This document shows, piece by piece, positions 3,575-37,851 of a stretch of 37,851 bases of DNA. Position 1 is the first letter of the stretch; every line of letters starts with the position of its first letter. A program made the position numbers and the translations under genes. The notes beneath the pieces are model-generated. The model saw only the letters and a program-made list of their open reading frames with translations, searched no databases and was not told where the DNA came from. The stretch is from Opitutia bacterium (GTDB taxonomy: Bacteria; Verrucomicrobiota; Verrucomicrobiia; Opitutales; Seribacteraceae): assembly GCA_018695085.1 (NCBI GenBank), contig JABHOU010000189.1, positions 1-37,851 on the forward strand, given 5' to 3'.

Positions 3575-3578
3575 GGAA

Positions 3579-4712
3579 TCAGTTGCTTGCAACCAAGGCG
3601 GCAAGATTACGTGCGGCTGTATTAATCCGAAAACGCTTCTCGAAACACGGGCGAGCGTTAGGAGCAAGCTTCGCAAAAGCAGGATTCTTCCATTCTCGCA
3701 TCAAAGCTCTAACGCCGGAAAGATCATCAGTGGAAACTTTTCCAGCTCGATCGTCCTCCACCTCTCGCCACAGGTTAACTTTGTCGGTGATCAGCACCGG
3801 AGTGCCTACGGCAAGAGCTTCGGCCACAACCATACCGAAATTTTCCTGATGGGACGGAAGAATCAACGAATCCGCTGTCCGCAAGGCACCCCACTTAACG
3901 TCACCTTGAATCATCCCCGCCCAAGTGATTCGATCTGCAAATGCACTGGATGACCGAACCAGCTCTTCGGCAAAAAACCCATCTTCGCTTGGTCCCGCAA
4001 CAACGAGATGGTCATCCGCTGTCGACAATTCTTCGAATGCCTGAAGAAGAAGATCGATGCCTTTCTTGCGATGGATACGACCCAGGAAAAGCAACACCCT
4101 CTTGTTTCGCAAGCTTGGAAATTTCTCATGAAAAGCATTTGTTTGAGCATCCATATCTGGAGGCGGTTCGCCGACACCCAGACCCGTCACGACCTCGTTG
4201 CACCGATACGGGCTAAAAGTTCCGCGGGCAAGTCGCCGTTCCTCATCGGTGGTAAAACATACTGCCTTGGCATTCCGCAATATTCGACCTTGGCGGAGCC
4301 ACCAGAACAACATTTTCTTAAGGTGTTTTACGGGATATTGGCTCTTGAACCAAGGATCGAGCATTCCATGAGGATAGACAAAGTAAGGCTTGCCCGCTTT
4401 ACGAGCAGCCTTACGAACGGCTACACTTGGGTACTGCCACAAGCCATGGGATACAAGTGCGTCAAAACTGGTGGCGTTTTCCATCAGCCATGACCCAAGG
4501 GCAGGACAAGAGTGGTAGCTGGAACCCGATGCAGGACCAAATCCTCTGACTGCAAGGTCTAATTCTTCGAAAAAAGAAGACGAGGGTTGATCACAGGTCG
4601 CTATTTCCGCTTTATGGCCCACCTCCGTAGAGGCCTCCGCCAATCGGTTAACCGCTTCGGCCACCCCTCCGGCCAAAGGATTACAGGAATGAACTACGTG
4701 GAGTAGCCTCAC
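3579..4712 (-). CDS. Glycosyltransferase family 4 (GT-B fold)
   Basis: 377 aa, GTG start at 4712-4710, N-terminus MRLLHVVHSCNPLAGGV. GT4 signatures are present: FLGRIHRKKGIDLLLQAF and SLILPSHQENFGMVVAEALAVGTPVLITD (E-x7-E). It starts only 22 nt after the stop of the 3857-aa gene. Confidence 0.88.
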   Translation of the reverse strand: MRLLHVVHSCNPLAGGVAEAVNRLAEASTEVGHKAEIATCDQPSSSFFEELDLAVRGFGPASGSSYHSCPALGSWLMENATSFDALVSHGLWQYPSVAVRKAARKAGKPYFVYPHGMLDPWFKSQYPVKHLKKMLFWWLRQGRILRNAKAVCFTTDEERRLARGTFSPYRCNEVVTGLGVGEPPPDMDAQTNAFHEKFPSLRNKRVLLFLGRIHRKKGIDLLLQAFEELSTADDHLVVAGPSEDGFFAEELVRSSSAFADRITWAGMIQGDVKWGALRTADSLILPSHQENFGMVVAEALAVGTPVLITDKVNLWREVEDDRAGKVSTDDLSGVRALMREWKNPAFAKLAPNARPCFEKRFRINTAARNLAALVASN

Positions 4713-16454: not shown

Positions 16455-19400
16455 TCATTTAGTTTTCTCCTTCCAGCTATTCTCGTCAAAATCAAAGTAT
16501 CTCGGATGAACGGCTTTTGGATCCCAATACCCCCAACCCGAGCCCGTTTGCCGAACAAGATAAAAGTGGGGGAAGAAGGTTGGATTCGACCACCACCACA
16601 CCTCTAGCTCTACATCCCAAAACCAAAACCCTCCCGTTCTGTCTGAAACAACGTAAAGCCAACCAAGACTCTCATGAAATACCCATGAAGAGCCGTTGGT
16701 AAAAAAGTCTCCAAACCATTCGGATTGACGCCAGTTTTGAGCCCCATCCACTTCTGCGGCGCTCAATCCAAGAGCATTGCCGCGTTTCACGGTAACGGTT
16801 GCTGTCCCGTAAAGGCCGTTTCCGTCGGCCAAACGCAACGCGACGACCATGGCTTCACCGACGGACAGGTGGTCAGCCTCGTCCTCATCCGCCACCAAGA
16901 GTTGTCCTTGCTCGCTCAAGGAAAAAGCGGCGACCCCATCCTTGTCAGTATCAGGATTGCCCGAACTAATGGAAAAGCCTACGGTATCTCCATCCGCATC
17001 GGCCCCATGAAGATTAAGGATGGTTACTCCCTGAATCCACTGGTCGGCAGGCAGGGCGATCTCCGCATTGGACGCCGTGGGTGGGAAGATGTTAACGCTC
17101 CCATTGTAGTCGGACGTTTGCCCGGAAAGCAATTCCTTGCTTTTGGCGGTTGCCAAGGTGGCGGGTGTTCCTCCTTCGAGCCGCAACTTCTCGTATCCCT
17201 GCACTATGCTATCTTCAACAACCGCTTGAATCTTTGCCAATTCGACTGCAAGCGTATCAGGAGCAGTCCCTTTAGCAAGAGACTCAACGATCATTCCATC
17301 GGCCGCCACGGACATTTGGGCCGCTCCGGCCAAATCTTCGGCGGTAACACCGGCAACACCCAAAGTCGTTACCACGCTTGTAAGAACATTCTGCATTTCG
17401 CTCGCATCGCCAAGGGGAGAAGCTGCACCACTGGCAATTTTGGCGGCAACTTCAGAAATCAATTGAGCAGAGATCGATTTTCCCGAAGCATTTCCGTCCG
17501 AGGCGTATTTCACGAAGGCCGCCCCCTGCCGAATTGCATTGGCGACCCGAGCGCTTGCGGCAAGAGCTTGACTAGCATTGGCATCTCCCTCCGCGGCTGC
17601 AGCAATGGGATCATAATTGAACAAGTCCAAGGAAGCTGACAACCCCAGTGCCTCCGCCACCTTGGATTTAGCGTCTTCCCGAGAGAGCCCTTGCTCGACA
17701 AAGGCCGAGGAAAGAGTGCTAAGGGGATTTACGACCGTTGAGTTGGCATCAGCTACGTAAAGTCCCGTAAAAGGTTCGAGTGTCGAAGAATCAGTTCCCC
17801 CGTAAACGAGTATTCTACCCTCTTCAGGATCTATGGCTCCGTTTTTATTGGCATCTGCCTTCAAAAACTCTTCCTCCGTGAATGAAAAGGAAAATGCACC
17901 GCTTTCATCGGTAAGCACTGGGCTCGACAGATCGTGAGTACCATTTCCGTCAATATCGAAAACAACGCTTGCCCCAACCAGATATCCATCCATCGCCTTG
18001 CCTGCGATGGTGTAGTTCCAGTCTGCTACGTAAATGGTTCGCTTGGTGGCAATCTCGTTGCCGGAATCATCGACTACCGAATAGTTAAGTTCATAAGTTC
18101 CGGTAACGTTTTCATCTAAAGATCCTGAAACCATCACCCTGTTGAAAAGATCGCCGTCCACGGTATCGAGAGCCGAAAAACCGGGCTCAACGAAGGGTTC
18201 GCCTTTGTTCAGGTTCATGGACGGACTGCCAAAGAGTAACAGATCTGGAGCAATGGTATCTACAATTTCCACTTTTCTCGTGGCAATCGCTTGGTTTCCT
18301 GCGATGTCTTGAACAATATAATTCAAATTGTATAACTGCAAAACGGTTCCCACGTCACTAGAACCCCAACCCAAAGGGGGAGCCAAAGTCGCTAGCTCGA
18401 CGCCCACTTTGTGCGTCAAGTTGCCGTCGACGACGTCAATGGCCGAATAGCCCGGATCTTCCCATTCCGTGCCCGCTTCATAAGTCACTAAATCGCCAGC
18501 AAACAATGAAATCTCCGGCGCTTTGCTGTCGCGAATTACAATTGTCCGAGTAACGGTACCAGTGCTACCCGCAGAATCGGCAGCCGTGTAGATCAAGTGG
18601 TACACTCCTGGTGGCGCGAGTGCGGAAACCTTTAGGGTTCCGCTCCCTTGGGTTGCGTTCAAGTCATCGATGGTAATTATTCCAGTCGCATTTCCATCTT
18701 CGCTAACGGTTTTAGGATCAATTACCCCATCATAATCATCGCTGGCCAAGGGCTTCAGATGAAAAACTTCATCCCCGGGATTAAGATAGACGGCTTTTTC
18801 TTTACCGTCACCTCCAATGACCGATTCAGCCATTGGCAACAAGGTGAGGAGGGGCGGCGGATCTTTAACGACAAAATTTACCTGCGAACGATCCTCGGAG
18901 AGACTTCTGTCCCACGAGCCGGAATAGTTGCCCACCGGCTCACCGTAATCGTAAGCTTTGTTGCTTGGGTCACCACTTTCACCACGATCAATAAAAGCAT
19001 GTATGTTGTAAGTTTTTCCTGTTGGCAAATTCTTGAAAAAATAAAAGGTTGCGGACGAGGGGGTGAGAGGTTTGTCACCTCCTAAATAGGAACTGACGTC
19101 TTTGTTCTCCTCAAAAACCGGCACCCCCTCCTCCTCGGGAATGGCCAAAACATAGAGGGTGCCGTTCATCTCTCCTTGAAAGTAAACCGTTCCGGATATG
19201 CCGGCTCCACCCTTTTCCGGGTTTAGAGGATCCAGACCAAAACTCACTTCAAGCCCATCGGGCCAGCCATCCCCATCGGTATCAGGATTTTTCGGATTAG
19301 TTCCGGTATTGTTTGCGTCAACGTATGTGTTCGTATTGGTTTCGACGCCATCGAGCAAGCCATCGGCATCGGTGTCGGCATTATTGGGGTCGGTTCTTAA

Positions 19401-22400
19401 GGTCGTTTCGCTTCCGTCGCCAAGACCATCCCCGTCGGTGTCGGCCTTCCAGGGATTGGTACGATAGCTAAACTCCAAGGAGTTGTTCAGTCCGTCGGTA
19501 TCGTTATCGTCATCCCAATCGATAAAACCTTCCCGAACCGTATCGAAATGGAGGTCCGACCACAGTTCCTTTTCCGTCAGTTGAGCCCTATGGGATGCTT
19601 CCAGACGCACCTTTTGCTCAAGCAAACCCAAAGTCGCCTTCAGCCAAAGCCCACCGCCGACCAAGGCGGTCAAGTTGGCATCGGTTCCGGTCTGGCCTTC
19701 CGGGCGGGACAAACGAATGCCGGAAATCACCGAATAACCGCTCCCGCCCTCAACCACTTCGATTGCCTTGACCGAGCCGGTAGAGTTGACTTCGGAAATG
19801 CGAGCGAAGGCACCCGAACCATCGCCAAAGATTTGAACAAGGGTGGAGTTGTCGTCCGAATAACCCGTGCCTCCGCCATCCACTCGAACAGATGCCACTT
19901 TTCCCGATCGCAGGGTGGAGCGCAATATCAAGGTCGTGGAATTACCGTCAATAGTGCTGAGAGATGCCAACTTCGTTAAGTTCCCCTCGGTCGAATTGAA
20001 GTCAAACTCTAGTTCCCACTTTACGTTATCGGTATCCAGAAGCGTACCGTTTCGATCGTAGCCCTTTGCGGTAAAGGTCATGTTCAAGTCACCCGCTACA
20101 GATGATGAAATTGGCATTTCAACCGAATTATCACCAGCCGAAGGTGAGATTATGAGGTGAGATGCGTTGGCATCCACCGCAGCCTTTCTTCCCATCCAAT
20201 AGGCATCGTCAAGCCTATCGAATAAGTAATCTTCCCTGAAGTCCAAGCCTGATATTGTGGATCCGTAAAACACCGTAAAACTATCAGCCGAATTATGGTT
20301 GGATGAATTTACATCCACAATCTGTATGTCGAGAGATCCGTCAGGATTAACGGTCGTAGAAAGATTGGGTATGCCCCTGCCGGTGTTTTGTGGATGTGGA
20401 GTAATCGAAAACACAGGTATGGTCCCCGGTCGAAAACCAACCCCGATCCCCTTTAAGTTTTTCTTCGTAGAGGTCGACTCTCCCTGACGCAATACGTCCT
20501 CCGGCCAAATGAGACTGCTCAAGCCTACGCCATTTTGGTCGGTTTCCAGCCTAAGTGAAGGAATGCCCGGGACGTAAACCACATGGGTAACGGTCGAATT
20601 GCCGTCCTCTCGGAAGGTGATTTCCTCCAAGTTGGAATCCTCCGCAAGCACGGCAGCATTGTATAACCCCGGCTCGAGGTTAGGAAACGAATAATAACCG
20701 TTGCTGTCGGTATAGGAAATCCACGCGTCGGGCAGGTACGCCCAAGAATATATGTTTTCGCCAAGAATTTCTGTCTCATGAACCCTTATCGCATCTTCAA
20801 AAGAGACACTGCCTCGTTCTTTTGAGATGCGTGAAATTGAAAGGTCTGCATCTTCAAAAGAAAAGCTCGTGATAACCCCCAAAGCCGACATCGCCCCACT
20901 TTGCCCGTTGAGCTTGCGCCAAAACTGGTCCACTTCATTTTCGGGGTCGTATTCCTTGCTCAGATTCCCAGAGACAAAAGTGGCGAGAGCTTCGTAGGCA
21001 TCCGCCCCCCACCATACGACGTCTCCCTTGTGATATTTGCCCGGTTCCCACTTGGTCACGACTCGCCAGTCGAGCGAAGGAGCCGAGTCGAGAGTATGAA
21101 TTTCTCCGCCCAATCCCTCGCGATCCCAATCCGAAAGAGAATAACTGGAGAAAGAAGGAAACGAATCGTCCACCACAACGTCCATGAAGCGCCGGTGGGA
21201 CAATGGATTATAATCGATACCCCCGTTGCGCCCGACGCTGGTCAACTTGTAGGCGTCCTCCCCTTCCAGGTTTGCACGATGAACTTCCACCACTGGGATT
21301 TCCCCGAAAACAGACCGCCACATGCCGTTGGCTTTATATGTTCCGTTGCCATCGAGAACCATTTTGCTCAACCCCTTGGTGAGGAAAGTGGTGGCGCAAG
21401 CGTCTCTGAAACTTTTGGCGTGACTGGAATTGAAATCGATGCGGATGGAAGGGGCATCGGCACCGTAACCAATGCCGTGGTCATGGATCGTGAATTCGGA
21501 AATCTGATCACCCGCGGAGTCACGAGGAATGGGCAATCCAAGATAAATACTCCCCCCGAGGGGCGATAACCTTTCGCGATATTCGTCCACGACCACCACT
21601 CTTGCCACTTCATTCAAGGCCCAAGGCCGTTCGCCAAACCCCTGTCCCGCCCCGGCGGGAAGAGTTACCGGACCAAGTTCTTCGTTCTTAAGGGCTGGGT
21701 CGTCATAAACCAACCGGACCATTTTTCCGTTGTTATTAAAAACGGGTATTACATCCACTCCCGAGCCCGTACCCATCACAAAGACCTCTGGGCAAGCGTA
21801 TCCGGCCCCGGGATTGTCAACGATTATTTCCACGATCTGCCCATTACGGAAGATTGGTGAACATTTAGCCTGAAATTCCTTATCTACGTTATATGTTGCT
21901 GAAATTTCTACGCGCGGATCAAGGTAACTATTGCCCGCCTTCTCCACAATCACTTTGACAACCCTGCCATCCACTACTTTGGCAAAGGCAGTAGCTCCCG
22001 TGCCAGTTCCCGCATTATCGGTAATCTTGACCAACGGAACATTGTGTATCATGGAAGAGGATTGGATTGGTATTTCATCAAGTGACCCGCCCAAGCGCAT
22101 GGTAACGTTGGCTTCCTTGGTCGGCTTCTGTCCCGCGTTGACCAAGACCACTTTGGGGGTGTTGTTGGCGTCTAAGTTAAAATAGCCTCGACCGCCATCC
22201 GTAACGAGGATGGCAGCGACCATTCCGCTGCCATTGTTCTCTAAAAAAGCACGTGCCCGAGCACCAATTCCTCCGCCTCCCGTAATGGAGACAAAGGGAG
22301 GTCGACTGTAGCCGGAACCGGGATCCAACAGTTCGATGGCATCCGCCGAAAGGGTTCCGTTCTCGTCCACTTTGTCGGGATTGATACGAGCTCGGGTATG

Positions 22401-25400
22401 ATTCAGGTCCCTGTAGTTCGATGGAGTCGTGTACCCGCCATGGAAGTTTACTTCAGCGGGCACGGAGTAGCCGAGCCCACCGTCCAAAATCTGTATGCGT
22501 GACAACACGTTCGTAAAAGACACACTTTTAGCATTTACTTGGCGCGCTTTGGTCGCATTCAAATCGAAATAAATCGTGGGCGGCTTCACCCAGCCGGAAC
22601 CGTAATCTTTTCTCTCGGGGTTTATGCGCATAGCCTTGACTTCGTACTTTCGGGGAGCTACGCCCCGAGCAACGTCCAGCTTGTCGGAGAGAAAGACCTC
22701 GACCACGGGCGGTTTCTCTTCAACTGGATCATCTCCGATGAAGCGCAACCACCGCTCCGGGTTGCGCAATTTCAATTGACCGTCATTGGCGTCATAGAAA
22801 ACGTCTTCGGTTCCCCAAAACCTATTGTCCGATGCCGGATAATAAACAACGTCTCCGTTATCTTTCGTCGTTATTTCCGGAAAATGCCTTAAAATGATGG
22901 TTCCGTCTTCGTTCTGATATTGGGTTCCCTCTAACATACAGAGGTTTTTTTCCTCTTCACTTAGCCCGGCGAATCCGTTTTCGGTTAGGGTATCAAAAAT
23001 GGCGTCGAGGGTGGAGTTCCTTTCGACGTCAAGGTCATAGGGTCCGTTGCCGGGCCTTCTTAAAATGAATCCATGAATAGCTTGTTCCCTCATTATGGAC
23101 TCGAATCGAGGCGGTATTGAGCCCTTGCCCCGAATACGCACGTCCCCTTCCGAAAACCCCGGATCCGAATATCCATGACCTGGATCGGTTATCAAGACCG
23201 ATTCCTCAGGATCAAGATAAAACAGGTGGCTGCCGGTGGCGTTGTCATCGGTTTTGGAACCACCGATGACAATCGTGGGGGGAGCTCGAAATCCAAAAAC
23301 ACCTTGCACCGGTCCCGGCCAAGGCGGTGAAGAATATTGGGAAGACGCAAATGGATGCGCCCATACGAAACCTCCGCCGGCTATGTATGCACTACCGTTG
23401 TCGTCGACGTATTCGACGTATCTGCGCTTGATCTCTTTGCCATCAGGCAATTGTATGTCCAAAGCCTTGCCCATGTCCTTGGTAAGCAGAACGCTTTCCA
23501 CGCCTGTCGGTTGGAGAGCGAGAACACCGTTGGCTGTTTGGCCTTCGCTATGTTCATACCTTTGCCAGACGGCGGCAGGGTAAATGTGAAGGGAGTTGTT
23601 CTTCATGAGGTTCAAGGCTTCAGGTTTCGTGTTGTTGTTCTCACGAATGGCGGAATAGGTGGAGTAGTCGGCTATTTCGGTTTTTCGATAACGAACCAAA
23701 TCGCCTTCCACATAAGTGGCGCAGGCATCCCACGGCTCCGGCTCATTGGATCCAGGAGGTGTGTCGCCCGGAGAAAAAGTTACCTTCGGGGTCTCCTTGT
23801 AGCCTGCTCCGGGGGCGGTAACTTTAACCGTTCCCACCGAATCCACGCGAGCCTCCAAAGATGCTCGAAAGACATCTTTGGCACTGGGGCGCAAATCGTA
23901 TAAAAAAGAAATTTCGGGTGCCTCAAGCACGCGATCGAAAACCCATACTTCATCTAGTTGGCCAATGAAATAATTGGTTTGGTTTGCCTCACTGGTTTGG
24001 TGGCGACCGATTGCCATATAATCTATGTTTTCAACATCGGCGAAAAAGCCACGGGGAGCGTTTTGCCCATCTGCTGCAGTACGCAAATCCACAGCTTTTC
24101 CATCGACGTAAAACAGTGAGCTCACCTCGTTAACGACAAGCAGCCCATGGTGCCAATCGTCATCGTTGAAGGTTTCTGTGGTGTAGACACGGGTTATTTC
24201 CGCTCCGCCGTTGGACACAAGGAATTGGATTTGGCCCGTATCTCGAACCATAAGTCGAAAGAAGGAATCCGGGTCATCTTTGTCAGAGGCGGCAAGAATA
24301 GTACCGTCAACGGGCGTTCCGTTCGCTAAAGATAGCGTCTTGAACCAAAAGCTCACACTGCCCGTGCTGAGGGGTGCAAAGTCTTGGGCGGCCTGTGACA
24401 GGTCGACGTATCGGGTGCCATTGAAATCGATGCCGTCGTTTGGATTGCCCGGCACTACCCCGGCGTCCAGCTCGTCGGGATCGTTCATCGGCATGTCCAT
24501 GGCGACGCCGTGTCGGTTTTGGCCGGAAAGATCGAGAAACAAATCGCCCGACAGTTGGCGAATCTCCCGAGGCTCCAAAGCCCGATCGAAGACGCTGACT
24601 TCGTCTATAAAGCCATTAAGGTATTCGGTAGTTGGGGTTTCCGTAAAAGCCTTACCTAGAATAAAGTCCGAGGCACGCCCAGAGATTTTGTTAAAGTTGC
24701 CAGCAAGAGTAAAGGTCTTGCTGGCCACAAGTTCACCCATCACATACATGGTCGCAGTCGCGGAGTCCTCGTCGAAGGCATAGGCGACGTGCGTCCATTC
24801 ACTGGCATTTAAATCACCGCCCGACAAAACAACATTGTCGGCTGAACCACTATTTTCCTCTGCTTTGTATAGAATTCCAACAAAGTCAGACGTATTCCAG
24901 TAAAGCGAAAAGGCATTCGTCCCGCTTTCTTTCTGAGAGGCTAACCCATGAAAACTGCCGTTACCGTCGGGCTTCACCCACAACGAAACGGTAAAGGAAT
25001 CGCCAAGAAATTTGTTTTTGTTAGGTGAATCGGGAGCAAGGTACTCCTCGACGGTAGAATTACCTTGAAGCCGTATGGCTCGACCTCGAATGCCCCACTC
25101 GGAGCGATCGGCGATGAAGACGCTAGCGTTCAGTTCCATGGTGGCGTTGTAATCGGTAGTTTGACCGAGAACAGGAGTGGCCCCGATATGATGATCTGAA
25201 GAAGAGGTGGAGTTCTCCTCGTCCATCGACCAATGGGCTTTCAAGCTCTGGGTAATGGGACGAAGCCAGCCCGGGGAGGGTTCCAGCATAAGCTTGTCCT
25301 TGCGGGGATAGTAATTCTGTCGGAATAAAGATTCCTCGCGATCGAAAGACCAGTAGGCAAAAGGATTGGGGGGGTACAAGGCGATCGCCAGGGTGGTGTT

Positions 25401-28400
25401 GAGGTCATAACTTTCACCTTGGTCGGCAAGGGAAACTTCCTTGAGCTTATCCGGTTCCGTTTGGCCTTTTTCGTTCGTGACCCCCATCTTTTTGGTCGAG
25501 GCGGATGCCTCCACGCCGCGTCCTACCACGGCGATGGATGGGGAATCCGGATAGCCCGCACCGGCCTCTAAAACTATGATGGTACCCACTCCATCCACAT
25601 AGGCTTTGGCCGTGGCATTTGCCTCTGCGTAATCTTCCCAGAGACTTTGGCGATTAATGGTGACCAACGGGGGGAAATCCGGGTGATGACCATTGCCGCC
25701 ACGAGCACCCGACACTTTGCGGGTACGAATTTTTTTCACCCCTGTCGGCGCAAGGAGAGACTTTGCATATGGCTTGTAAACGATCCTGTATGGTGTGAAA
25801 ATTGAGCCATTGTCCTCAAGATATTCGACATAGGAACGAGTAAGGTTGCTTTCGTAAGAGTCAAAAATTCCGCCATCGAGAACAACTTCCGGGTTTTGCT
25901 CGTAGCCAGAGCCCGGATCTTCCACTCTGGGAGAGAAAATGAGCCTCAACTCCACCTTGGCGGGCTCGCTGTCCGGGGCGGAATAAAAAGTGATTGGATA
26001 ACCTTTCGCGGACGGCTCGTACTCAAAGCGATGAATCTCCCCTCGTCGAAACTCTAGACGAGGCGACCTTTGGCCATCGATAAAGAATTTCGTGGTGTCC
26101 GCCAGGCCGGCCGGTATCCGAGAAGATAAAAGGTCGCCCGATACGGTAACCACGTGCTGAATGATCGGGGCCTTTTGCAGGACGACCCTCGCCCCCTGCA
26201 CGGGTCCGGTGGTGGACTCGACCACACCCTCGATGCGCGAAATGCCGGCTTGCTCGGGTTCGCCCACGGCAAGAACTACGGTTTGCGAGGATACGCCACC
26301 CTTCATGTCGGAAACCACGGCACGAAGGTTATGGTTCCCCACGGAGTCGAAAGTCTTAATTATCGTTGGCTGGTTTAGGTAGGCGTCGCCAATAAGAGGT
26401 CTCTCGTCGTGATACCAAGAGAAAGCATATCGCGAAAGGTTGGCGTCCCCGGACAATATGACCGTGAATTCGACTCCCTGATTTACCTCCGGGCGAAGGT
26501 TACTTGTCTGCAAGGAGAACAATGGGGCGGAAGCGTTACCATCTGCAACCGTTCCGACGTTCAAGGCGACTTCCAAATATTCCATGGGAGAATTTCCTCC
26601 GCGTGAGATGGGAGTAATGTGCACGTCGCTATCGTAGTCCGAATAAGTCTGCCCTAGCATTAAGGAACCATCGGTAAAGTCATCCGGCGTGTTGCGGGTG
26701 AGATCCAGCAAAACGTTGTCGGCGCCATCGGCGTTTATCAAGTTCAGCCCGTTTTTTGTTGCGGATTGCCTGTAAGAAACGAGATAGGACCAGTAAGGAG
26801 CTTTCGAGGAGGCATGCAAACGAATGGCTCGTAATCCCTTGGCGGAAGACGGTGAACGATCTCGCAATTCGGCTTTGACCGGTGTTTGACCCGCAAATAC
26901 CTGAATCCAAGCAGAATCAAGCAAGAGAGATTTGTTTTGATCGTCAAGCAACTCGATTCTCGGCTCTTCCGAAAAACCGATACCAGGACTCGTAATCGTC
27001 AACTCGTAACTGCGCTTGGACCCAGTAGCCGTAGCGGTTACTTCCGTGCCTGGCCCGCCAATGGAGACGGTAATGCTTCCGGAAGGAAAATCTTTCGGCA
27101 AGTCAATGTTAGCCGGCACCGCTACTGTATAGGACCCCAGCCGCAATGGATAAGGTGCGGAGCCGTAATCGTGTCGGTAGACCCGAAAAACATTTTGTCG
27201 AGTGGCGTTCGGTTCACGCCATATGCTTGCCGCAATATCTGCTCCGGAAGCGAGAAAGGTCGCGTCTGCTCCTGAAGCATTCCCTTCCTCGTAACCAAAC
27301 TGAGCAACGATTTTGGCTGCAACAGTAAGATCGGCTCCGATACCTCCCGTGCCCATGACGGAATATGGATTGCCGTAATCGATCACTCCGCCTTCGTCGC
27401 TAATTGCCTTCTCGCCAACGGACTCGTATCGATTGGCATGCTGAAACCCAAAATTATGCCCAAGCTCGTGGGCCGCGACACCTGCTTCCCAGCTTGACGC
27501 CGTGACATGTGAACCCGGGGCGCCCACCTTGCCCAAACCGCCAGAACCGCATGTGGTGATCGAGATCCATGAGACCGCAGTCCTGCCGACCTTGGCCGTA
27601 AGCGTAGCGTTGGGGTCGTCATTTTTGTTTTCATGCTCTCCCTCGACCGTAACCGTGGGAACGGCAGTATAATCTCTTCCAGTATCAGTGACCAAAACCG
27701 ATGCTATGCTGCCATTCGAATCAAGAAACGCCTCGGCTTTTGCGCCGCTTCCACCGCCGCCTTCTATTCGAACAAGGGGAGGGTAAAGGTAGCCACCTCC
27801 ACTTGCACTCACCTCTATACCAGTCACTCCCTTGAAGGCGGGTCCATCGAAATCCCAATCCTCGGGGCTCACTTGAGCGGCGATGGTCTTGGGAAGATCA
27901 ATATCGACTTCGCAAGCCTCCACGATCTCGTCGTCCCCGAACATCGTGTGCTTCGACCATTTCCGTGTCGGCATGGTCACGGTTCCAGTGATTACATAGT
28001 CGAGGTTGAGTTTGTAATCGGAATTTCTTTGGTAAAATTCTCGTACTTTTTCCATTACTTGACGCACTTGAAGTCCAGTAACAGGCTCGAAAGCATCTTG
28101 CTGCTTGTCGGGATTTATTATGTTGCCATCCTCGTCAACCACAGGCTTGGAAGATCCGGCATATTCCACGCCCTCATCCTGATAACGAGCTCGGATGACC
28201 AACACTTTTCGGTTGTCGGAAATGGGAACGTCACTAGCATCGGGCTGGTCGCCCAAATCCATTTCTATTACATAAGGCAGGTGGAAGGTATGGTTAAGGT
28301 CCCGCCACACTCCGCCAGCATTCCAGTCCATAACGGCAAAGTCCTCCGCCTCAGCAAGCACGGGGTTCGTTGCGTTGTCATTTTCGCCAACCGCCCAATT

Positions 28401-29627
28401 GGAATAGCCGGCAAAAGTGGAGCCGTCGAGCCAAGTCCAGTTTCCTTCGGTGGCATTCAAATCGAAATATTCGGTGGAGTTCGTATCTTTGTTGAAAGAA
28501 CTCCCTTTCGAGATATTTCCAGTAGTATTGATGTGATCGGTCCCCCCTATCCAGGCATATGGCACGGTTCCGTTGTACTCGGGAAACAAACCCATGACAT
28601 TGGCATCTTCCAAAAGTTTGCGGACATCCTCGTTTTCATGAGCGGAACCGATGCAAACCAACCGTCCACCACTGTTCTCCGCATTAGCCTTGGCCGTCTC
28701 CCAATCAGCAGGAGCGATGACCACCTTGTACTTGAGGTCAATGATCGTACTCGAGCCCGAACTGCCGGCGATGACCGGATAACGCACACGATTGCGGCCG
28801 GCTCGGCGCTCGGCTTCGCGAACTCGGCGCTCAAAGGCAAAAACACCTTCTTCACGAGGAAATTCATAGATTGCATCGGCGATTTCCACTGCGACCGAAC
28901 CTTCGATTTCACGGCCTCGAAGTTCGGTTTCTCCTAAACGGCGGACGGGATTCTCGTCCACCGCTACAATATCGCCGACAGCAATGCCCCGAATGGCGAG
29001 ACCCTTCATCGTGGGAAGTTTGTAGCGCTTGCCGTAAAGGGATGCCTTCAGGCGACGACCATCAGGAAGAATGACAGTGTGCCTTATGAAGCCGCCCAAG
29101 TGACTTGGGTCCAGACAGAAATGAACAGCTTCTACATCCGCATATGTATTAACCCAACTGCCCAAAAAGGGAAGAATGGCCTCTGGAAGACCATGCCTAT
29201 CGACCTGAGGAACAGCCAAGGACAAGGCGGCCTCGGGATCGGTACGGATCAAGTGAGCAAGAACCTCTTGGCGCTCTTTCGCCAATACAATCCCCCTCGC
29301 GACTTCGGCCCTACCCGCCTTGCGAGCAGCAACCCATTCACCAAAACGCTTGAAGGCCGGATCAGCTTTTGTCGCGATAATTCGAGATGGAGAACACCAT
29401 TCGAGATATTCAGTAGGACGATCATCGGATAAAGTCACTTTCCCGGGAACCAGCAAAGTCTTGGTCGAGAGATTACGGTCGTCCTGTTTTTTGGTGATGT
29501 TAATATTTTCGGGCAGGCGCGAGAGCAAAAAGAAAACCGTTCCGATAATACCAGCGACCGAAAGCATCCACACTGCACCGCGGAACAATAATTTGACTTT
29601 GGCAGTCCTTTTGCGGGTGGAAGACAT
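16455..29627 (-). CDS. Giant N-terminally membrane-anchored multidomain protein (4390 aa): C-type lectin, metzincin zinc protease, PKD-like, 2x LamG, CBM5/12-like, GxGY repeats, TSP3-like, DUF5011-like Ig, Ala-rich helical region, cadherin-like, Trp-rich C-terminal module
   Basis: An uninterrupted 13.2-kb ORF with a true ATG at 29627-29625 and TGA at 16457-16455. A basic N-terminus (MSSTRKRTAKVK) is followed by one hydrophobic helix. The individual domain motifs are listed as separate features. Confidence 0.92.
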   Translation of the reverse strand: MSSTRKRTAKVKLLFRGAVWMLSVAGIIGTVFFLLSRLPENINITKKQDDRNLSTKTLLVPGKVTLSDDRPTEYLEWCSPSRIIATKADPAFKRFGEWVAARKAGRAEVARGIVLAKERQEVLAHLIRTDPEAALSLAVPQVDRHGLPEAILPFLGSWVNTYADVEAVHFCLDPSHLGGFIRHTVILPDGRRLKASLYGKRYKLPTMKGLAIRGIAVGDIVAVDENPVRRLGETELRGREIEGSVAVEIADAIYEFPREEGVFAFERRVREAERRAGRNRVRYPVIAGSSGSSTIIDLKYKVVIAPADWETAKANAENSGGRLVCIGSAHENEDVRKLLEDANVMGLFPEYNGTVPYAWIGGTDHINTTGNISKGSSFNKDTNSTEYFDLNATEGNWTWLDGSTFAGYSNWAVGENDNATNPVLAEAEDFAVMDWNAGGVWRDLNHTFHLPYVIEMDLGDQPDASDVPISDNRKVLVIRARYQDEGVEYAGSSKPVVDEDGNIINPDKQQDAFEPVTGLQVRQVMEKVREFYQRNSDYKLNLDYVITGTVTMPTRKWSKHTMFGDDEIVEACEVDIDLPKTIAAQVSPEDWDFDGPAFKGVTGIEVSASGGGYLYPPLVRIEGGGGSGAKAEAFLDSNGSIASVLVTDTGRDYTAVPTVTVEGEHENKNDDPNATLTAKVGRTAVSWISITTCGSGGLGKVGAPGSHVTASSWEAGVAAHELGHNFGFQHANRYESVGEKAISDEGGVIDYGNPYSVMGTGGIGADLTVAAKIVAQFGYEEGNASGADATFLASGADIAASIWREPNATRQNVFRVYRHDYGSAPYPLRLGSYTVAVPANIDLPKDFPSGSITVSIGGPGTEVTATATGSKRSYELTITSPGIGFSEEPRIELLDDQNKSLLLDSAWIQVFAGQTPVKAELRDRSPSSAKGLRAIRLHASSKAPYWSYLVSYRQSATKNGLNLINADGADNVLLDLTRNTPDDFTDGSLMLGQTYSDYDSDVHITPISRGGNSPMEYLEVALNVGTVADGNASAPLFSLQTSNLRPEVNQGVEFTVILSGDANLSRYAFSWYHDERPLIGDAYLNQPTIIKTFDSVGNHNLRAVVSDMKGGVSSQTVVLAVGEPEQAGISRIEGVVESTTGPVQGARVVLQKAPIIQHVVTVSGDLLSSRIPAGLADTTKFFIDGQRSPRLEFRRGEIHRFEYEPSAKGYPITFYSAPDSEPAKVELRLIFSPRVEDPGSGYEQNPEVVLDGGIFDSYESNLTRSYVEYLEDNGSIFTPYRIVYKPYAKSLLAPTGVKKIRTRKVSGARGGNGHHPDFPPLVTINRQSLWEDYAEANATAKAYVDGVGTIIVLEAGAGYPDSPSIAVVGRGVEASASTKKMGVTNEKGQTEPDKLKEVSLADQGESYDLNTTLAIALYPPNPFAYWSFDREESLFRQNYYPRKDKLMLEPSPGWLRPITQSLKAHWSMDEENSTSSSDHHIGATPVLGQTTDYNATMELNASVFIADRSEWGIRGRAIRLQGNSTVEEYLAPDSPNKNKFLGDSFTVSLWVKPDGNGSFHGLASQKESGTNAFSLYWNTSDFVGILYKAEENSGSADNVVLSGGDLNASEWTHVAYAFDEDSATATMYVMGELVASKTFTLAGNFNKISGRASDFILGKAFTETPTTEYLNGFIDEVSVFDRALEPREIRQLSGDLFLDLSGQNRHGVAMDMPMNDPDELDAGVVPGNPNDGIDFNGTRYVDLSQAAQDFAPLSTGSVSFWFKTLSLANGTPVDGTILAASDKDDPDSFFRLMVRDTGQIQFLVSNGGAEITRVYTTETFNDDDWHHGLLVVNEVSSLFYVDGKAVDLRTAADGQNAPRGFFADVENIDYMAIGRHQTSEANQTNYFIGQLDEVWVFDRVLEAPEISFLYDLRPSAKDVFRASLEARVDSVGTVKVTAPGAGYKETPKVTFSPGDTPPGSNEPEPWDACATYVEGDLVRYRKTEIADYSTYSAIRENNNTKPEALNLMKNNSLHIYPAAVWQRYEHSEGQTANGVLALQPTGVESVLLTKDMGKALDIQLPDGKEIKRRYVEYVDDNGSAYIAGGGFVWAHPFASSQYSSPPWPGPVQGVFGFRAPPTIVIGGSKTDDNATGSHLFYLDPEESVLITDPGHGYSDPGFSEGDVRIRGKGSIPPRFESIMREQAIHGFILRRPGNGPYDLDVERNSTLDAIFDTLTENGFAGLSEEEKNLCMLEGTQYQNEDGTIILRHFPEITTKDNGDVVYYPASDNRFWGTEDVFYDANDGQLKLRNPERWLRFIGDDPVEEKPPVVEVFLSDKLDVARGVAPRKYEVKAMRINPERKDYGSGWVKPPTIYFDLNATKARQVNAKSVSFTNVLSRIQILDGGLGYSVPAEVNFHGGYTTPSNYRDLNHTRARINPDKVDENGTLSADAIELLDPGSGYSRPPFVSITGGGGIGARARAFLENNGSGMVAAILVTDGGRGYFNLDANNTPKVVLVNAGQKPTKEANVTMRLGGSLDEIPIQSSSMIHNVPLVKITDNAGTGTGATAFAKVVDGRVVKVIVEKAGNSYLDPRVEISATYNVDKEFQAKCSPIFRNGQIVEIIVDNPGAGYACPEVFVMGTGSGVDVIPVFNNNGKMVRLVYDDPALKNEELGPVTLPAGAGQGFGERPWALNEVARVVVVDEYRERLSPLGGSIYLGLPIPRDSAGDQISEFTIHDHGIGYGADAPSIRIDFNSSHAKSFRDACATTFLTKGLSKMVLDGNGTYKANGMWRSVFGEIPVVEVHRANLEGEDAYKLTSVGRNGGIDYNPLSHRRFMDVVVDDSFPSFSSYSLSDWDREGLGGEIHTLDSAPSLDWRVVTKWEPGKYHKGDVVWWGADAYEALATFVSGNLSKEYDPENEVDQFWRKLNGQSGAMSALGVITSFSFEDADLSISRISKERGSVSFEDAIRVHETEILGENIYSWAYLPDAWISYTDSNGYYSFPNLEPGLYNAAVLAEDSNLEEITFREDGNSTVTHVVYVPGIPSLRLETDQNGVGLSSLIWPEDVLRQGESTSTKKNLKGIGVGFRPGTIPVFSITPHPQNTGRGIPNLSTTVNPDGSLDIQIVDVNSSNHNSADSFTVFYGSTISGLDFREDYLFDRLDDAYWMGRKAAVDANASHLIISPSAGDNSVEMPISSSVAGDLNMTFTAKGYDRNGTLLDTDNVKWELEFDFNSTEGNLTKLASLSTIDGNSTTLILRSTLRSGKVASVRVDGGGTGYSDDNSTLVQIFGDGSGAFARISEVNSTGSVKAIEVVEGGSGYSVISGIRLSRPEGQTGTDANLTALVGGGLWLKATLGLLEQKVRLEASHRAQLTEKELWSDLHFDTVREGFIDWDDDNDTDGLNNSLEFSYRTNPWKADTDGDGLGDGSETTLRTDPNNADTDADGLLDGVETNTNTYVDANNTGTNPKNPDTDGDGWPDGLEVSFGLDPLNPEKGGAGISGTVYFQGEMNGTLYVLAIPEEEGVPVFEENKDVSSYLGGDKPLTPSSATFYFFKNLPTGKTYNIHAFIDRGESGDPSNKAYDYGEPVGNYSGSWDRSLSEDRSQVNFVVKDPPPLLTLLPMAESVIGGDGKEKAVYLNPGDEVFHLKPLASDDYDGVIDPKTVSEDGNATGIITIDDLNATQGSGTLKVSALAPPGVYHLIYTAADSAGSTGTVTRTIVIRDSKAPEISLFAGDLVTYEAGTEWEDPGYSAIDVVDGNLTHKVGVELATLAPPLGWGSSDVGTVLQLYNLNYIVQDIAGNQAIATRKVEIVDTIAPDLLLFGSPSMNLNKGEPFVEPGFSALDTVDGDLFNRVMVSGSLDENVTGTYELNYSVVDDSGNEIATKRTIYVADWNYTIAGKAMDGYLVGASVVFDIDGNGTHDLSSPVLTDESGAFSFSFTEEEFLKADANKNGAIDPEEGRILVYGGTDSSTLEPFTGLYVADANSTVVNPLSTLSSAFVEQGLSREDAKSKVAEALGLSASLDLFNYDPIAAAAEGDANASQALAASARVANAIRQGAAFVKYASDGNASGKSISAQLISEVAAKIASGAASPLGDASEMQNVLTSVVTTLGVAGVTAEDLAGAAQMSVAADGMIVESLAKGTAPDTLAVELAKIQAVVEDSIVQGYEKLRLEGGTPATLATAKSKELLSGQTSDYNGSVNIFPPTASNAEIALPADQWIQGVTILNLHGADADGDTVGFSISSGNPDTDKDGVAAFSLSEQGQLLVADEDEADHLSVGEAMVVALRLADGNGLYGTATVTVKRGNALGLSAAEVDGAQNWRQSEWFGDFFTNGSSWVFHESLGWLYVVSDRTGGFWFWDVELEVWWWSNPTFFPHFYLVRQTGSGWGYWDPKAVHPRYFDFDENSWKEKTK
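16458..16736 (-). other. Trp-rich C-terminal module of the 4390-aa protein (93 aa)
   Basis: Sequence NWRQSEWFGDFFTNGSSWVFHESLGWLYVVSDRTGGFWFWDVELEVWWWSNPTFFPHFYLVRQTGSGWGYWDPKAVHPRYFDFDENSWKEKTK. It has 15 Trp in 93 aa. It aligns by eye with 4738-5067. Confidence 0.7.
16785..17091 (-). other. Cadherin-like / VCBS-like beta domain
   Basis: Sequence IALPADQWIQGVTILNLHGADADGDTVGFSISSGNPDTDKDGVAAFSLSEQGQLLVADEDEADHLSVGEAMVVALRLADGNGLYGTATVTV. The pattern (A.D.DGD.l.fsi..g........F.i...G.l.v) is typical of bacterial cadherin-like domains. Confidence 0.5.
18030..18530 (-). repeat. Two tandem DUF5011-like (HYR-like) Ig domains
   Basis: First copy: APEISLFAGDLVTYEAGTEWEDPGYSAIDVVDGNLTHKV...YIVQDIAGNQAIATRKVEIVD. 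Second copy: APDLLLFGSPSMNLNKGEPFVEPGFSALDTVDGDLFNRVMVSG...YSVVDDSGNEIATKRTIYV. The consensus P.i.l.G......G..y.dpG..A.D..DG.l...v is conserved. A third, weaker copy lies upstream at about 18540-18800. Confidence 0.7.
19210..19521 (-). repeat. Thrombospondin type-3-like calcium-binding repeats
   Basis: Sequence DWDDDNDTDGLNNSLE...ADTDGDGLGDGSE...NADTDADGLLDGVE...NPDTDGDGWPDGLE...GLDPLNP, containing four to five DxDxDGxxDxxE loops. Confidence 0.75.
23895..25105 (-). other. Two tandem LamG / concanavalin-A-like lectin domains
   Basis: Domain 1: FTVSLWVKPDG...EWTHVAYAFD....MYVMGELV....FILGK......LNGFIDEVSVFDRALEPREIRQL. Domain 2: GSVSFWFKT...DDDWHHGLLVV....LFYVDGKAV......MAIGR......FIGQLDEVWVFDRVLEAPEISFL. 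These are classic Laminin_G_3-type motifs. Confidence 0.75.
26265..26530 (-). other. PKD-like Ig domain followed by a carboxypeptidase-regulatory-like segment
   Basis: Sequence LFSLQTSNLRPEVNQGVEFTVILSGDANLSRYAFSWYHDERPL...HNLRAVVSDMKGGVSSQTVVLAVG, then ISRIEGVVESTTGPVQGARVVLQ. Confidence 0.5.
27438..27470 (-). other. Metzincin zinc-binding motif HELGHNFGFQH (HExxHxxGxxH)
   Basis: The coding strand reads cac gag ctt ggg cat aat ttt ggg ttt cag cat (aa 720-730). A candidate Met-turn YSVMG lies about 30 aa downstream. The upstream segment KVLVIRARY...FYQRNSDYKLNLDYVITGTVTMP resembles the N-terminal half of gametolysin (M11)/reprolysin-like catalytic domains. Family assignment is not certain. 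Confidence 0.75.
28266..28736 (-). other. C-type lectin-like domain
   Basis: Sequence YKVVIAPADWETAKANAENSGGRLVCIGSAHENEDVRKLL...PYAWIGGTD...GNWTWLDGSTFAGYSNWAVGE...EDFAVMDW..GVWRDLN. This is the canonical pattern W..A...C...g..La.i.s..E..f......WIGl.d......W.W.DGs...y.nW. Boundaries are approximate. Confidence 0.7.
29520..29597 (-). other. Single N-terminal transmembrane segment (signal anchor or uncleaved signal peptide)
   Basis: aa 11-36, VKLLFRGAVWMLSVAGIIGTVFFLLS, preceded by the basic stretch STRKRTAK. No obvious A-x-A cleavage site follows. Confidence 0.6.
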
Positions 29628-36175: not shown

Positions 36176-36203
36176 CAAGACATGAGAAGCGGAAAGTTTG
36201 ACA

Positions 36204-37851
36204 CTATAAGGAACGTTCCCCTTTCAATTCGATTTCGTAGTGAAAATAAGTATAGAAACGGTTGAAGAGGTCTCCTCTTCCTTCGGTTTCGAATTGCTTT
36301 TTTAAAATCTTTTCAGCGAAATCGCACCGCTCAAGGCTTTCCGTAAGAGCCTTTTGGTGGGCACTGTTGAGCTGAATTAAGTTTTCTCGGCGCGATTCGG
36401 TTTCCAAATCGCGGACAAGAAAGCGACCGTTAAGGACAAGCACGCGATTCGGTTTTAAGTTTTGGTTGTCAATCGCTCGCTGACGACCGGGCTTTTTGGT
36501 GCCTCGTGCTTCTCGTTGGACATAAAGTTCGTCAAGCCAAACCTCGCGGGCTTCATTAATTATCAATGCCTGCAAATCAGCCAACAACAGACGCCAATTG
36601 TCAGCCCCAGAGCTTACGGCTTGCAGCGACGAAAGTTCTTTGTCTATCGCTCTCGCAAAATGGTCAAGGGCAACCAAGCCCTCTTGCTTTTCTACCTGTT
36701 CTGAAACTTCCAGTTGTTTTTGGCGTAACTGTCCTTTTTTTTCGGCAAGCGTTTGTTTGGCTTGAGAAAACTCTGCCATCGTCCCAATAACAGACGGAAG
36801 CGGAACAAGCGAAAGAATAACTGCTGCTGCAGCCAACCACCAACGCTTTTTGCGGATGGTCATATTGGCCAGCTTGTCTTTGGGTAGCAAATTTATGCCA
36901 CGATAGGATGATGTCTCTCCCACCGCAAAAACTCGACAAGCCTCTCCTACTACTTCGCTCAAAATAAATGGCAATTGTGGTAGTATTTCAGGGTCTATCT
37001 TAGGTCCTATTTTAACGGCACGCAAAGGATCAAAATAGTCTACCGCCAAAGCCTGTTTTTGACTTAAATATTCAGGAAGACCCGGCAGCAAGGAACCCTT
37101 TCCGCAGAGAAAAACTCTGGTCGGTGACTTGCCTTTCTTTAGGCGTTTGTAAGTAACAACGGAGCGAGTTACCTCTTGGCTCAAGCGAGCTTTGAATTGT
37201 TCGGCATTTTTCTCGAGAACCTGCACGGCGGGATCATCGGAAGAGAAAGCTACCTCGCCGGAAAAAAAAGATCGCTTTACTTGTTCCGCCTTTGCAAAAG
37301 GCACCCCTATGCTATCGGCGACATGCTGGGTTAGTGAGTTGCCACCAAGAGCAATATTGCGTATGAGAAAGCCCTCTGGATTTATGAAAAGAAGATTTGT
37401 GGACTTGGCCCCAATGTTAATTACAAGTGTCTCCTCGCCCCTCATTTCCAGCAGAGAAAGCCTTAGTGCATTGTAGTCGAGTATGGAGGCTGCGCTCAAT
37501 TCGACGGGATTGAGACCCAACGCATCGACTTTTTCGCAAAAGGATTCCGCGATCGCAGGGCGAACGGCTATGGCAAGAACCTCCTGCTCCACCCCATCAT
37601 CCTCAACGACCTGATAGTCCCAAATTAATTCGGCCAAAGGATATGGCATCTTTTGCTGCAACTCGAAGGCAACTATTTGTCGCTGTTTGCTCTCCTCTAC
37701 ACGAGGTGCTCGAATCGTTTTCGTAAGCAAAAGACTGCCTGGCAAAATGAAATGGGCCTCTCCCTTGCCAATTCCGTGGCCAACGAGTTTTTCAAGGCCA
37801 TCGGCAAGTGCGTCAAGCCATAGACTTTCGTTGGAGTAGTCGTATTGCAGA
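36204..37851 (-). CDS. pilM: Type IV pilus assembly protein PilM fused to a PilN-like module; 5' end lies outside the window
   Basis: The reading frame stays open upstream of the track start (a TTG at 37745) to the window edge (...LQYDYSNESLWLDALADGLEKLVGHGIGKGEAHFILPGS...). The PilM actin-like/FtsA-like part includes QRQIVAFELQQKMPYPLAELIWDYQV, LVINIGAKSTNLLF, ALGGNSLTQHVA and VFLCGKGSLLPGL. It is followed by the PilN signature GINLLPKDK, a TM helix WWLAAAAVILSLVPLPSVIG (about 36790-36860), a coiled coil and an alpha/beta C-terminal domain. Confidence 0.85.
   Translation of the reverse strand, partial: LQYDYSNESLWLDALADGLEKLVGHGIGKGEAHFILPGSLLLTKTIRAPRVEESKQRQIVAFELQQKMPYPLAELIWDYQVVEDDGVEQEVLAIAVRPAIAESFCEKVDALGLNPVELSAASILDYNALRLSLLEMRGEETLVINIGAKSTNLLFINPEGFLIRNIALGGNSLTQHVADSIGVPFAKAEQVKRSFFSGEVAFSSDDPAVQVLEKNAEQFKARLSQEVTRSVVTYKRLKKGKSPTRVFLCGKGSLLPGLPEYLSQKQALAVDYFDPLRAVKIGPKIDPEILPQLPFILSEVVGEACRVFAVGETSSYRGINLLPKDKLANMTIRKKRWWLAAAAVILSLVPLPSVIGTMAEFSQAKQTLAEKKGQLRQKQLEVSEQVEKQEGLVALDHFARAIDKELSSLQAVSSGADNWRLLLADLQALIINEAREVWLDELYVQREARGTKKPGRQRAIDNQNLKPNRVLVLNGRFLVRDLETESRRENLIQLNSAHQKALTESLERCDFAEKILKKQFETEGRGDLFNRFYTYFHYEIELKGERSL

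Follow-up and report, generated by a model that had tools for sequence, protein, structure and literature searches.

The stretch of DNA described here (the window: positions 1 to 37,851 of contig JABHOU010000189.1, assembly GCA_018695085.1, from an Opitutia bacterium of the phylum Verrucomicrobiota) carries a single gene string on its minus strand, which runs from a PilM-like gene through two genes for glycosyltransferases of family GT4 to one encoding a thioredoxin-like protein. The opposite strand carries hisF. Between the PilM/secretin cluster and the GT4 pair lie the genes of two giant proteins, here called A and B, both of which are predicted to be exported to the cell surface. Protein A is saturated with the extended sequon D/E-X-N-X-S/T (X not Pro), which is the acceptor rule of PglB, the oligosaccharyltransferase (OST) of Campylobacter (PMC4894442, PMC11580905). 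In the following, we describe the sequons of the giants and of their relatives, the genes around them, and the modification to which the sequons may point.

Extended sequons in the two giant proteins

Throughout this work, an extended sequon is D/E-X-N-X-S/T without Pro at position -1 or +1 relative to the Asn, and N-X-S/T was counted as N[^P][ST]. Protein A contains 74 N-X-S/T, of which 61 have Asp or Glu at -2; in 59 of these, Pro is absent from -1 as well. When the whole protein was shuffled (n = 2000), 31.2 ± 5.2 N-X-S/T and 4.1 ± 2.0 extended sequons were obtained, with a maximum of 13 for the latter, and shuffling within blocks of 20 or 40 residues gave 4.5-4.7 ± 2.1 extended sequons. 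The 59 extended sequons of A thus exceed the shuffles by a z score of about 26. Two artefacts were considered as sources of the sequons: one of composition is excluded by the global and local shuffles, and one of repeat units was rejected as A has no internal repeats (blastp, 1e-5).

The residues of the sequon depend on each other. Around Asn in A, an acidic residue at -2 is coupled with Ser or Thr at +2 (odds ratio 29; Fisher's test, p = 3e-24). Asn takes the centre of the pattern [DE]x?x[ST] in 61 cases, a 9.5-fold excess over the expected count; other central residues mostly stay at or below 1.1-fold, the exception being Cys (n = 2), and D-x-D-x-S/T was observed once (0.11-fold). The reversed motif [ST]xNx[DE] occurs three times, which is the chance level, the counts for shifted offsets (Asp/Glu at -1 or -3, Ser/Thr at +1 or +3) are close to background, and neither [KR]xNx[ST] nor [DE]xNP[ST] was found in the protein. 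Sequons ending in Thr number 40 against 1.8 expected (22-fold) and those ending in Ser 19 against 2.3 (8-fold), though Ser outnumbers Thr in the protein. N-X-S/T sites without the acidic residue are depleted (12 against 25.6 expected; z = -2.9). On all of these sequence features A follows the acceptor rule of PglB, with the acid at -2 only, no Pro at +1, Thr preferred to Ser, and no Lys or Arg at -2.

The sequons of A span residues 52 to 4175 at a density of approximately one site per 75 residues, and their flanks are heterogeneous. The densest cluster (residues 3182-3285) consists of DLNMT, DRNGT, DFNST, EGNLT, DGNST, DDNST and EVNST. A comprises metallopeptidase-like, PKD, three LamG/ConA-like and bacterial Ig-like domains as well as a C-terminal Trp-rich domain (Pfam for the known ones). 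A homologue search with residues 1-1200 returned four weak PKD/Calx matches and missed A itself, and a single-sequence AlphaFold2 model of residues 3091-3500 had a mean confidence (pLDDT) of 34. Export, which is expected of acceptor proteins, is indicated for both giants: the N-terminus of A is a signal anchor with a hydrophobic segment from about residue 13, every sequon being located C-terminal to this segment, and B has a signal-peptide-like N-terminus.

Protein B, in which CARDB, Big_7, Y_Y_Y and PD40 domains were recognised, shows the same bias in a weaker form. Its 58 N-X-S/T include 19 with Asp or Glu at -2, 18 of them without Pro at -1, against 4.2-4.5 ± 2.1 extended sequons in the shuffles (about 4-fold; z about 6.5). 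A and B have in common a GxGY repeat, one loop of which bears a sequon in A (DSNGS, ENNGS, EVNST) and usually none in B (INSYG, IANES, DENGT). The nine remaining open reading frames (ORFs) of the window, when pooled, have two extended sequons among 16 N-X-S/T, which is the background rate.

A preliminary description of this DNA had reported, from counts by hand, about 74 N-X-S/T in A, about 61 of them with an acidic -2 position, and 19 of 58 in B; the script reproduced these figures exactly. The same description had held that the acidic -2 position in A occurs in excess of chance, and the shuffled controls (59 against 4.1-4.7 ± 2.1) bear this out. Its contrast between the GxGY loops of A and B also holds, and its view that the sites do not represent one structural motif is supported by the heterogeneous flanks, the lack of internal repeats and the unrelated types of domain in which the sites are found.

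Orthologues of A and the family marked by a Trp-rich domain

The same genes occur, identical, on many marine metagenome contigs and in the NCBI metagenome-assembled genome (MAG) GCA_018672975.1, and the flanking proteins carry the NCBI name 'Opitutae bacterium'. The contig prefix of this MAG is JABHDR01; genes of this kind are also carried by the genome of protein MDA7822472.1 and by Opitutae MAGs with proteins MBT79228xx-79239xx and MBT35675xx-35681xx. The organism is present in samples from Station ALOHA, Tara and the Caspian. A contig scan with A revealed an orthologue in one further species-level genome only, the MAG 'Verrucomicrobia bacterium casp150-mb.33'. The lineage of the giants is marine Opitutae/Opitutales, Verrucomicrobiota. 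In assemblies from long reads, and in some of JGI, several adjoining ORFs take the place of single A-like and B-like giants (loci L012 and L013). The breaks are probably frameshift errors, so that the database entries of this family with 500-2700 aa would often be fragments.

In an orthologue with 83% identity to A (MAG JAQBYT01), 55 of 69 N-X-S/T are extended. Forty-five extended sites are common to the two proteins, 14 are found in A only and 10 are new in the orthologue; of the 12 N-X-S/T without a counterpart in A, 10 are extended. The two sites of A with Pro at -1 correspond to DANAT and ELNAT in the orthologue. Residues within sequons are better conserved than residues of the same types elsewhere in the protein (Asn, 0.86 vs 0.75; Asp/Glu, 0.92 vs 0.84; Ser/Thr, 0.90 vs 0.82). 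The acidic -2 position is also kept at larger distances, as A-like orthologues with 36-51% identity have 45-84 extended sequons each, 15-24 of which are at the aligned positions of A. Since density is kept while the positions turn over, the pattern is the one expected for selection on a modification coat and not on a structural element.

The Trp-rich domain that closes A is an all-beta domain of approximately 90-110 aa with nine invariant Trp in the alignments. An AlphaFold2 model of the domain reached a pLDDT of 90.5; Foldseek found no neighbour of this model in the PDB, and the domain matched no entry of Pfam-A or NCBIfam. B ends with a divergent version of the domain: the domain profile hits residues 3740-3808 of B (hmmsearch, E = 2.5e-12), and blastp pairs residues 4290-4388 of A with residues 3740-3857 of B. 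The domain may serve for surface anchoring or sorting.

The C-terminal region of A matched 1006 cluster representatives (exhaustive phmmer, E ≤ 1e-3). Among the best 150 of the 1006, extended sites number 514 of 1013 (approximately 51%) in representatives with the Trp-rich domain, against 79 of 653 in those lacking the domain and matching through the Ig-like module alone. Single proteins reach 78 of 102, 48 of 67, 46 of 64 and 43 of 59 extended sites, and one of 412 aa has 19 of 22. Named members of the saturated clusters are 'Opitutales bacterium', and the unsaturated matches belong to Tolumonas, Marinicrinis and Syntrophobacteraceae. A metagenome scan with the domain alignment yielded 80 marine loci, in which the Trp-domain ORFs have 923 of 1760 sites extended vs 264 of 1641 in all other ORFs; the extended share of the controls overall is 12-16%. 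At these loci, the share amounts to 60-84% in A-like giants and to 32-40% in their B-like neighbours. The neighbourhoods of three family members (P0368, P0248 and P0234) either show the A-like/B-like arrangement again or are short contigs. Judged by these counts, sequon saturation is a family-wide and lineage-specific trait, which is marked by the Trp-rich domain.

Two small Trp-domain proteins carry their sequons in tandem, in linkers that consist almost entirely of such units apart from Pro-rich spacers. P0368 has seven consecutive sequons in a Pro-rich linker, the last of which is DQNAT, and L087_+1 (locus L087, 1-903, plus strand) has 11 sequons in a Pro-rich linker, spaced by two to a dozen residues; DQNAT, DQNGT and DANAT are among the sequons of these linkers. 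DQNAT, which also serves as an engineered tag, is the experimentally optimal acceptor of C. jejuni PglB (PMC4894442, PMC11580905).

Three side observations concern the genes beside Trp-domain proteins. A minus-strand ORF of locus L053 (770 aa) encodes a lipoprotein with multihaem cytochrome and tetratricopeptide-repeat features and without the Trp-rich domain, in which four of five N-X-S/T are extended; this hints that the bias may reach ordinary periplasmic proteins of the lineage. A minus-strand ORF of locus L087 (493 aa; L087_-0) encodes an ankyrin-repeat protein with six of seven sites extended. The ankyrin consensus contains D-x-N-A, and false positives are therefore to be expected in proteome-wide counts of the sequon. 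At locus L077 (plus strand, offset 538), the gene for a 557-aa exosortase-like membrane protein with the motif IDATCSGIRS adjoins that of a Trp-domain protein.

Neighbouring genes and the GT4 pair

The features of the window are collected in Table 1.

Table 1. Features of the window, with coordinates, strand and the basis of each assignment
Feature	Coordinates	Strand	Basis and remarks
PilM-like protein, Amuc_1101 family	36204..37851	-	Pfam PilM_2; start beyond window end
Two membrane-anchored proteins, 437 and 412 aa	33621..36178 (ORFs 33621-34934, 34940-36178)	-	Between PilM-like gene and secretin
Secretin, 1249 aa	29704..33453	-	Directly upstream of A; Pfam Secretin, 1.2e-36
Giant protein A, 4390 aa	16455..29627	-	ORF; identical protein called on ENA and NCBI contigs
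Densest sequon cluster of A, residues 3182-3285	19773..20084	-	Site list and cluster scan; seven sequons over a length of 104 residues
Trp-rich C-terminal domain of A, residues 4277-4388	16464..16799	-	phmmer, alignments
Giant protein B, 3857 aa	4735..16308	-	ORF, Pfam, counts
C-terminal stretch of B with divergent Trp-rich domain, residues 3740-3857	4738..5091	-	hmmsearch and blastp
First GT4 glycosyltransferase, 377 aa	3579..4712	-	Pfam; directly downstream of B
Second GT4 glycosyltransferase, 408-aa ORF from TTG start	2450..3676	-	Pfam

The genes upstream of A recall the Amuc_1098-1102 cluster of Akkermansia muciniphila. The PilM-like protein, which has a full length of 586 aa (gene on contig L008), matches the NCBIfam model Amuc_1101_fam with 5.7e-80 and 270 bits, below the equivalog cut-off of 650. 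The secretin matches Amuc_1098_fam, the model of the type IV pilus outer-membrane protein of Akkermansia, with 5e-104 and 349 bits, which falls short of the 750 bits set for an equivalog. The 412-aa membrane-anchored protein shows a weak match to Amuc_1100_fam (NCBIfam, E = 7e-4), again below the equivalog cut-off. From these scores, the PilM-like protein and the secretin are clear relatives of the Amuc_1101 and Amuc_1098 families, not equivalogs. On contig L008 (2494-11507), a 230-aa protein, the PilM-like protein, the two anchored proteins and the secretin form a cluster of the Amuc_1098-1102 type. Unlike in Akkermansia, the genes of two giant proteins with the Trp-rich domain come after the cluster here, together with the two for GT4 enzymes, and the Amuc-type secretin may have the giants as its cargo or partners.

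Neither GT4 protein has a predicted membrane segment. The best NCBIfam model is HpsP for the first (2.5e-45, 155 bits, cut-off 550) and EpsE for the second (61 bits). The best models of the two proteins, namely HpsP, an XrtY-associated one (112 bits) and EpsE, are of exopolysaccharide type, and all of the scores are below the cut-offs of the respective models. In L039, L023, L068, L078, L070 and L027, a B-like protein ends with its Trp-rich domain and an orthologue of the first GT4 gene starts approximately 4-50 nt further on, and the second follows the first in L078, L070 and L039. The gene order at these six independent loci identifies a conserved operon link between B-like giants and the GT4 pair, which probably serves the same surface structure as the giants, by building a glycan or, with lower probability, through direct action on the protein. 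The two GT4 ORFs of the window overlap by 98 nt (3579-3676) if the upstream TTG is used as the start of the second. Gene callers give the second protein 374-384 aa instead of 408 aa from TTG, its true start is probably downstream of 3676, and the overlap is thus probably an artefact of the longest-ORF rule.

Interpretation and comparison with known systems

The excess of the sequons, their agreement with the acceptor rule and the export signals of the giants make it likely, in our judgement, that the Asn residues of these sequons are glycosylated. The D/E-X-N-X-S/T sites would be acceptors for Asn-linked glycosylation after export, the enzyme being an OST that obeys the minus-two rule like PglB of Campylobacter and transfers a lipid-linked glycan. 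In the simplest form of this model, the enzyme would belong to the PglB/STT3 family and be encoded elsewhere in the genome. We lean, with some reserve, towards this explanation, namely dense Asn glycosylation of the exported giants by a PglB/STT3-family OST with a requirement for the acid at -2. Selection would act on the number of sites and not on particular positions, and the outcome would be a dense glycan coat, with around one site per 75 residues in A and fully glycosylated linkers in some relatives. Such a coat would plausibly protect or solubilise these very long extracellular proteins.

Several results weigh against an enzyme of the PglB/STT3 family. Neither an STT3/PglB-like ORF, nor a WW[DE][YFW]G motif, nor any GT-C enzyme turned up in the window, in 20 kb of sequence flanking it (L001 and L008), the orthologous MAG locus (L007) or the 80 related loci (approximately 0.6 Mb with 1571 ORFs, scanned by hmmsearch --max with a profile of Campylobacter PglB). 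Similarly, no PglC-type initiating phosphoglycosyltransferase and no flippase was found in the window, the flanks or the related loci. The ORFs with multiple membrane segments in the 80 loci are CstA, KefB, ABC-2 transporters, acyltransferase_3 and an exosortase. The extended sequon is not enriched in the secretin or the operon's other periplasmic proteins, which have few N-X-S/T (3-4 per protein), and some structural motifs yield D-x-N-A-S/T by chance, e.g., the ankyrin consensus in L087_-0. A database search with C. jejuni PglB (sequence validated against PDB 3AAG, 5OGL and 3RCE) gave only Campylobacter among the matches listed (at least 120). In a full-text literature search, no experiment showing N-glycosylation in Verrucomicrobiota came to light, nor did any paper that links Verrucomicrobiota or Opitutales with PglB, another OST or an enrichment of sequons, in agreement with the preliminary description, to which no association of the PglB system with this lineage was known. 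Several PglB proteins of Desulfovibrio are relaxed and need no acid at -2, and eukaryotic N-glycosylation sites disfavour it (PMC4894442, PMC11580905). As some PglB homologues do without the acid, the minus-two rule cannot serve as a diagnostic of the family. Finally, the preliminary description had cited the two GT4 genes as support of the Pgl type, by their family membership shared with PglA, PglH and PglJ. This argument proved weak: the first GT4 protein scores 20.9 bits with PglJ and the second 17.7 bits with PglH, against cut-offs of 500 and 600, respectively, and the pair was rejected as PglA/PglH/PglJ in favour of the exopolysaccharide-type models. Of the PglB-type reading in that description, then, the sequon excess, its specificity and the acceptor rule stand, and the accompanying genes were missing from the loci searched.

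The absence of an STT3-like gene from the window, its flanks and the related loci (approximately 0.8 Mb altogether) leads to an alternative, in which the Campylobacter sequon is read by an enzyme outside the STT3/PglB family and the giants are coated with 50-80 glycans each. The enzyme could be another membrane glycosyltransferase, or a cytoplasmic one that acts before Sec export in the manner of HMW1C on HMW1. The conserved GT4 pair could have this role; the pair has no predicted membrane segment and is tightly syntenic with B-like giants in the six loci. A dedicated pair of GT4 genes whose products glycosylate adhesins ahead of their export is known in GtfA/GtfB of serine-rich repeat adhesins. 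Saturation, moreover, tracks the family with the Trp-rich domain, and this domain or the secretin cluster may direct the substrates; a coupling of such a pathway to the domain, to the Amuc-type secretin cluster or to the GT4 pair is conceivable. Nevertheless, we know of no GT4 enzyme that makes Asn-linked glycans or reads D/E-X-N-X-S/T, and saturation is lower in the B-like proteins encoded just before the GT4 pair (8-34% in L023, L068, L078 and L039). The L053 lipoprotein hints at a general rather than a dedicated system. As for an enzyme of the HMW1C form, Pfam recognised no GT41 domain in the window, and non-acidic N-X-S/T are depleted in A. We therefore regard a non-STT3 enzyme as unlikely, albeit worth keeping in mind.

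The pentapeptide could also be an unmodified structural or metal-binding element (an Asx-turn, an ST-motif or a Ca2+ loop) favoured in the lineage's beta-rich extracellular domains. In adhesins, Asp and Asn abound in the loops that bind Ca2+; 13 of the 59 sites in A read D/E-x-N-G-S/T, a sequence often found in beta-turns; and the ankyrin consensus generates D-x-N-A-S/T as mentioned above. However, Glu replaces Asp at -2 in 18 of the 61 sites, and neither the preference for Thr over Ser nor the near absence of D-x-D-x-S/T agrees with such an element. The sites lie in unrelated types of domain and in tandem arrays of unstructured Pro-rich linkers, homologous loops and homologues from other phyla lack them, and their number is maintained despite the turnover of positions. 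On these grounds, a purely structural element is quite improbable.

Least probable of all, and hardly to be expected, is that the motif directs a different event, such as O-glycosylation at the +2 Ser/Thr with Asn serving for recognition, another modification of Asn, or recognition by a protease or a sortase-like enzyme: general O-glycosylation of Bacteroidetes uses short acidic motifs and an exosortase gene adjoins a Trp-domain protein at one locus (L077), but Asn is the invariant centre of a motif that equals the N-linked sequon in every detail tested, and 50-80 cleavage sites per protein are implausible. The Bacteroidetes motif D[ST][AILMTV] is at the expected level in both giants (A, 15 vs 17.7 expected; B, 16 vs 14.7), and general O-glycosylation of this type was rejected.

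The N-glycosylation by a PglB/STT3-family OST favoured here may be compared with known systems. The pgl systems of C. jejuni and C. lari share with it the acceptor motif, the exclusion of Pro at -1 and +1, the preference for Thr and the export of the substrates, and their optimal acceptor DQNAT recurs in the linkers described above. The differences are that the bacteria belong to Verrucomicrobiota instead of Campylobacterota, that 45-84 sites per protein and tandem arrays occur here, whereas typical Campylobacter glycoproteins carry 1-3 sites, and that no pglB, pglC or pglK was found near the giants, the adjoining GT4 genes scoring below the PglH/PglJ cut-offs. The PglB homologues of Desulfovibrio are single-subunit bacterial OSTs outside Campylobacterota with genes located away from any pgl-type cluster. 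Their -2 position is relaxed or non-acidic, in contrast to an acid in 80% of the sites and a depletion of the non-acidic ones here. The engineered GlycoTags, tandem DQNAT used with PglB in Escherichia coli, have a natural likeness in the linkers of P0368 and L087_+1 with their arrays of 7-11 close sequons, although the latter come from uncultured bacteria. HMW1/HMW1C of Haemophilus influenzae likewise involves a very large adhesin with dozens of N-linked sites and an adjoining gene for the enzyme. That enzyme is a cytoplasmic GT41 protein acting on plain N-X-S/T, whereas the window lacks GT41 and its sites require the acid at -2.

To our knowledge, Campylobacterota and a few Desulfobacterota are the only bacteria in which extended-sequon N-glycosylation has been established. 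The acceptor motif is thus known, and what is new is the phylum, the density of the sites, the natural tandem arrays and the link to a new C-terminal domain. If the giants are indeed glycosylated, extended-sequon N-glycosylation would also occur in Verrucomicrobiota that are abundant in the sea, its sites being as dense as is otherwise known from S-layers of archaea or envelope proteins of viruses, and a new glycoproteome would be recognisable by a simple count of the motif. Such a system would point to unexplored OSTs obeying the minus-two rule, potentially useful for glycoengineering, for which the small Trp-domain proteins supply natural multi-sequon linkers. It would also tie the Trp-rich domain, present in more than 1000 protein clusters, and the Akkermansia-type secretin cluster to the display of glycoproteins.

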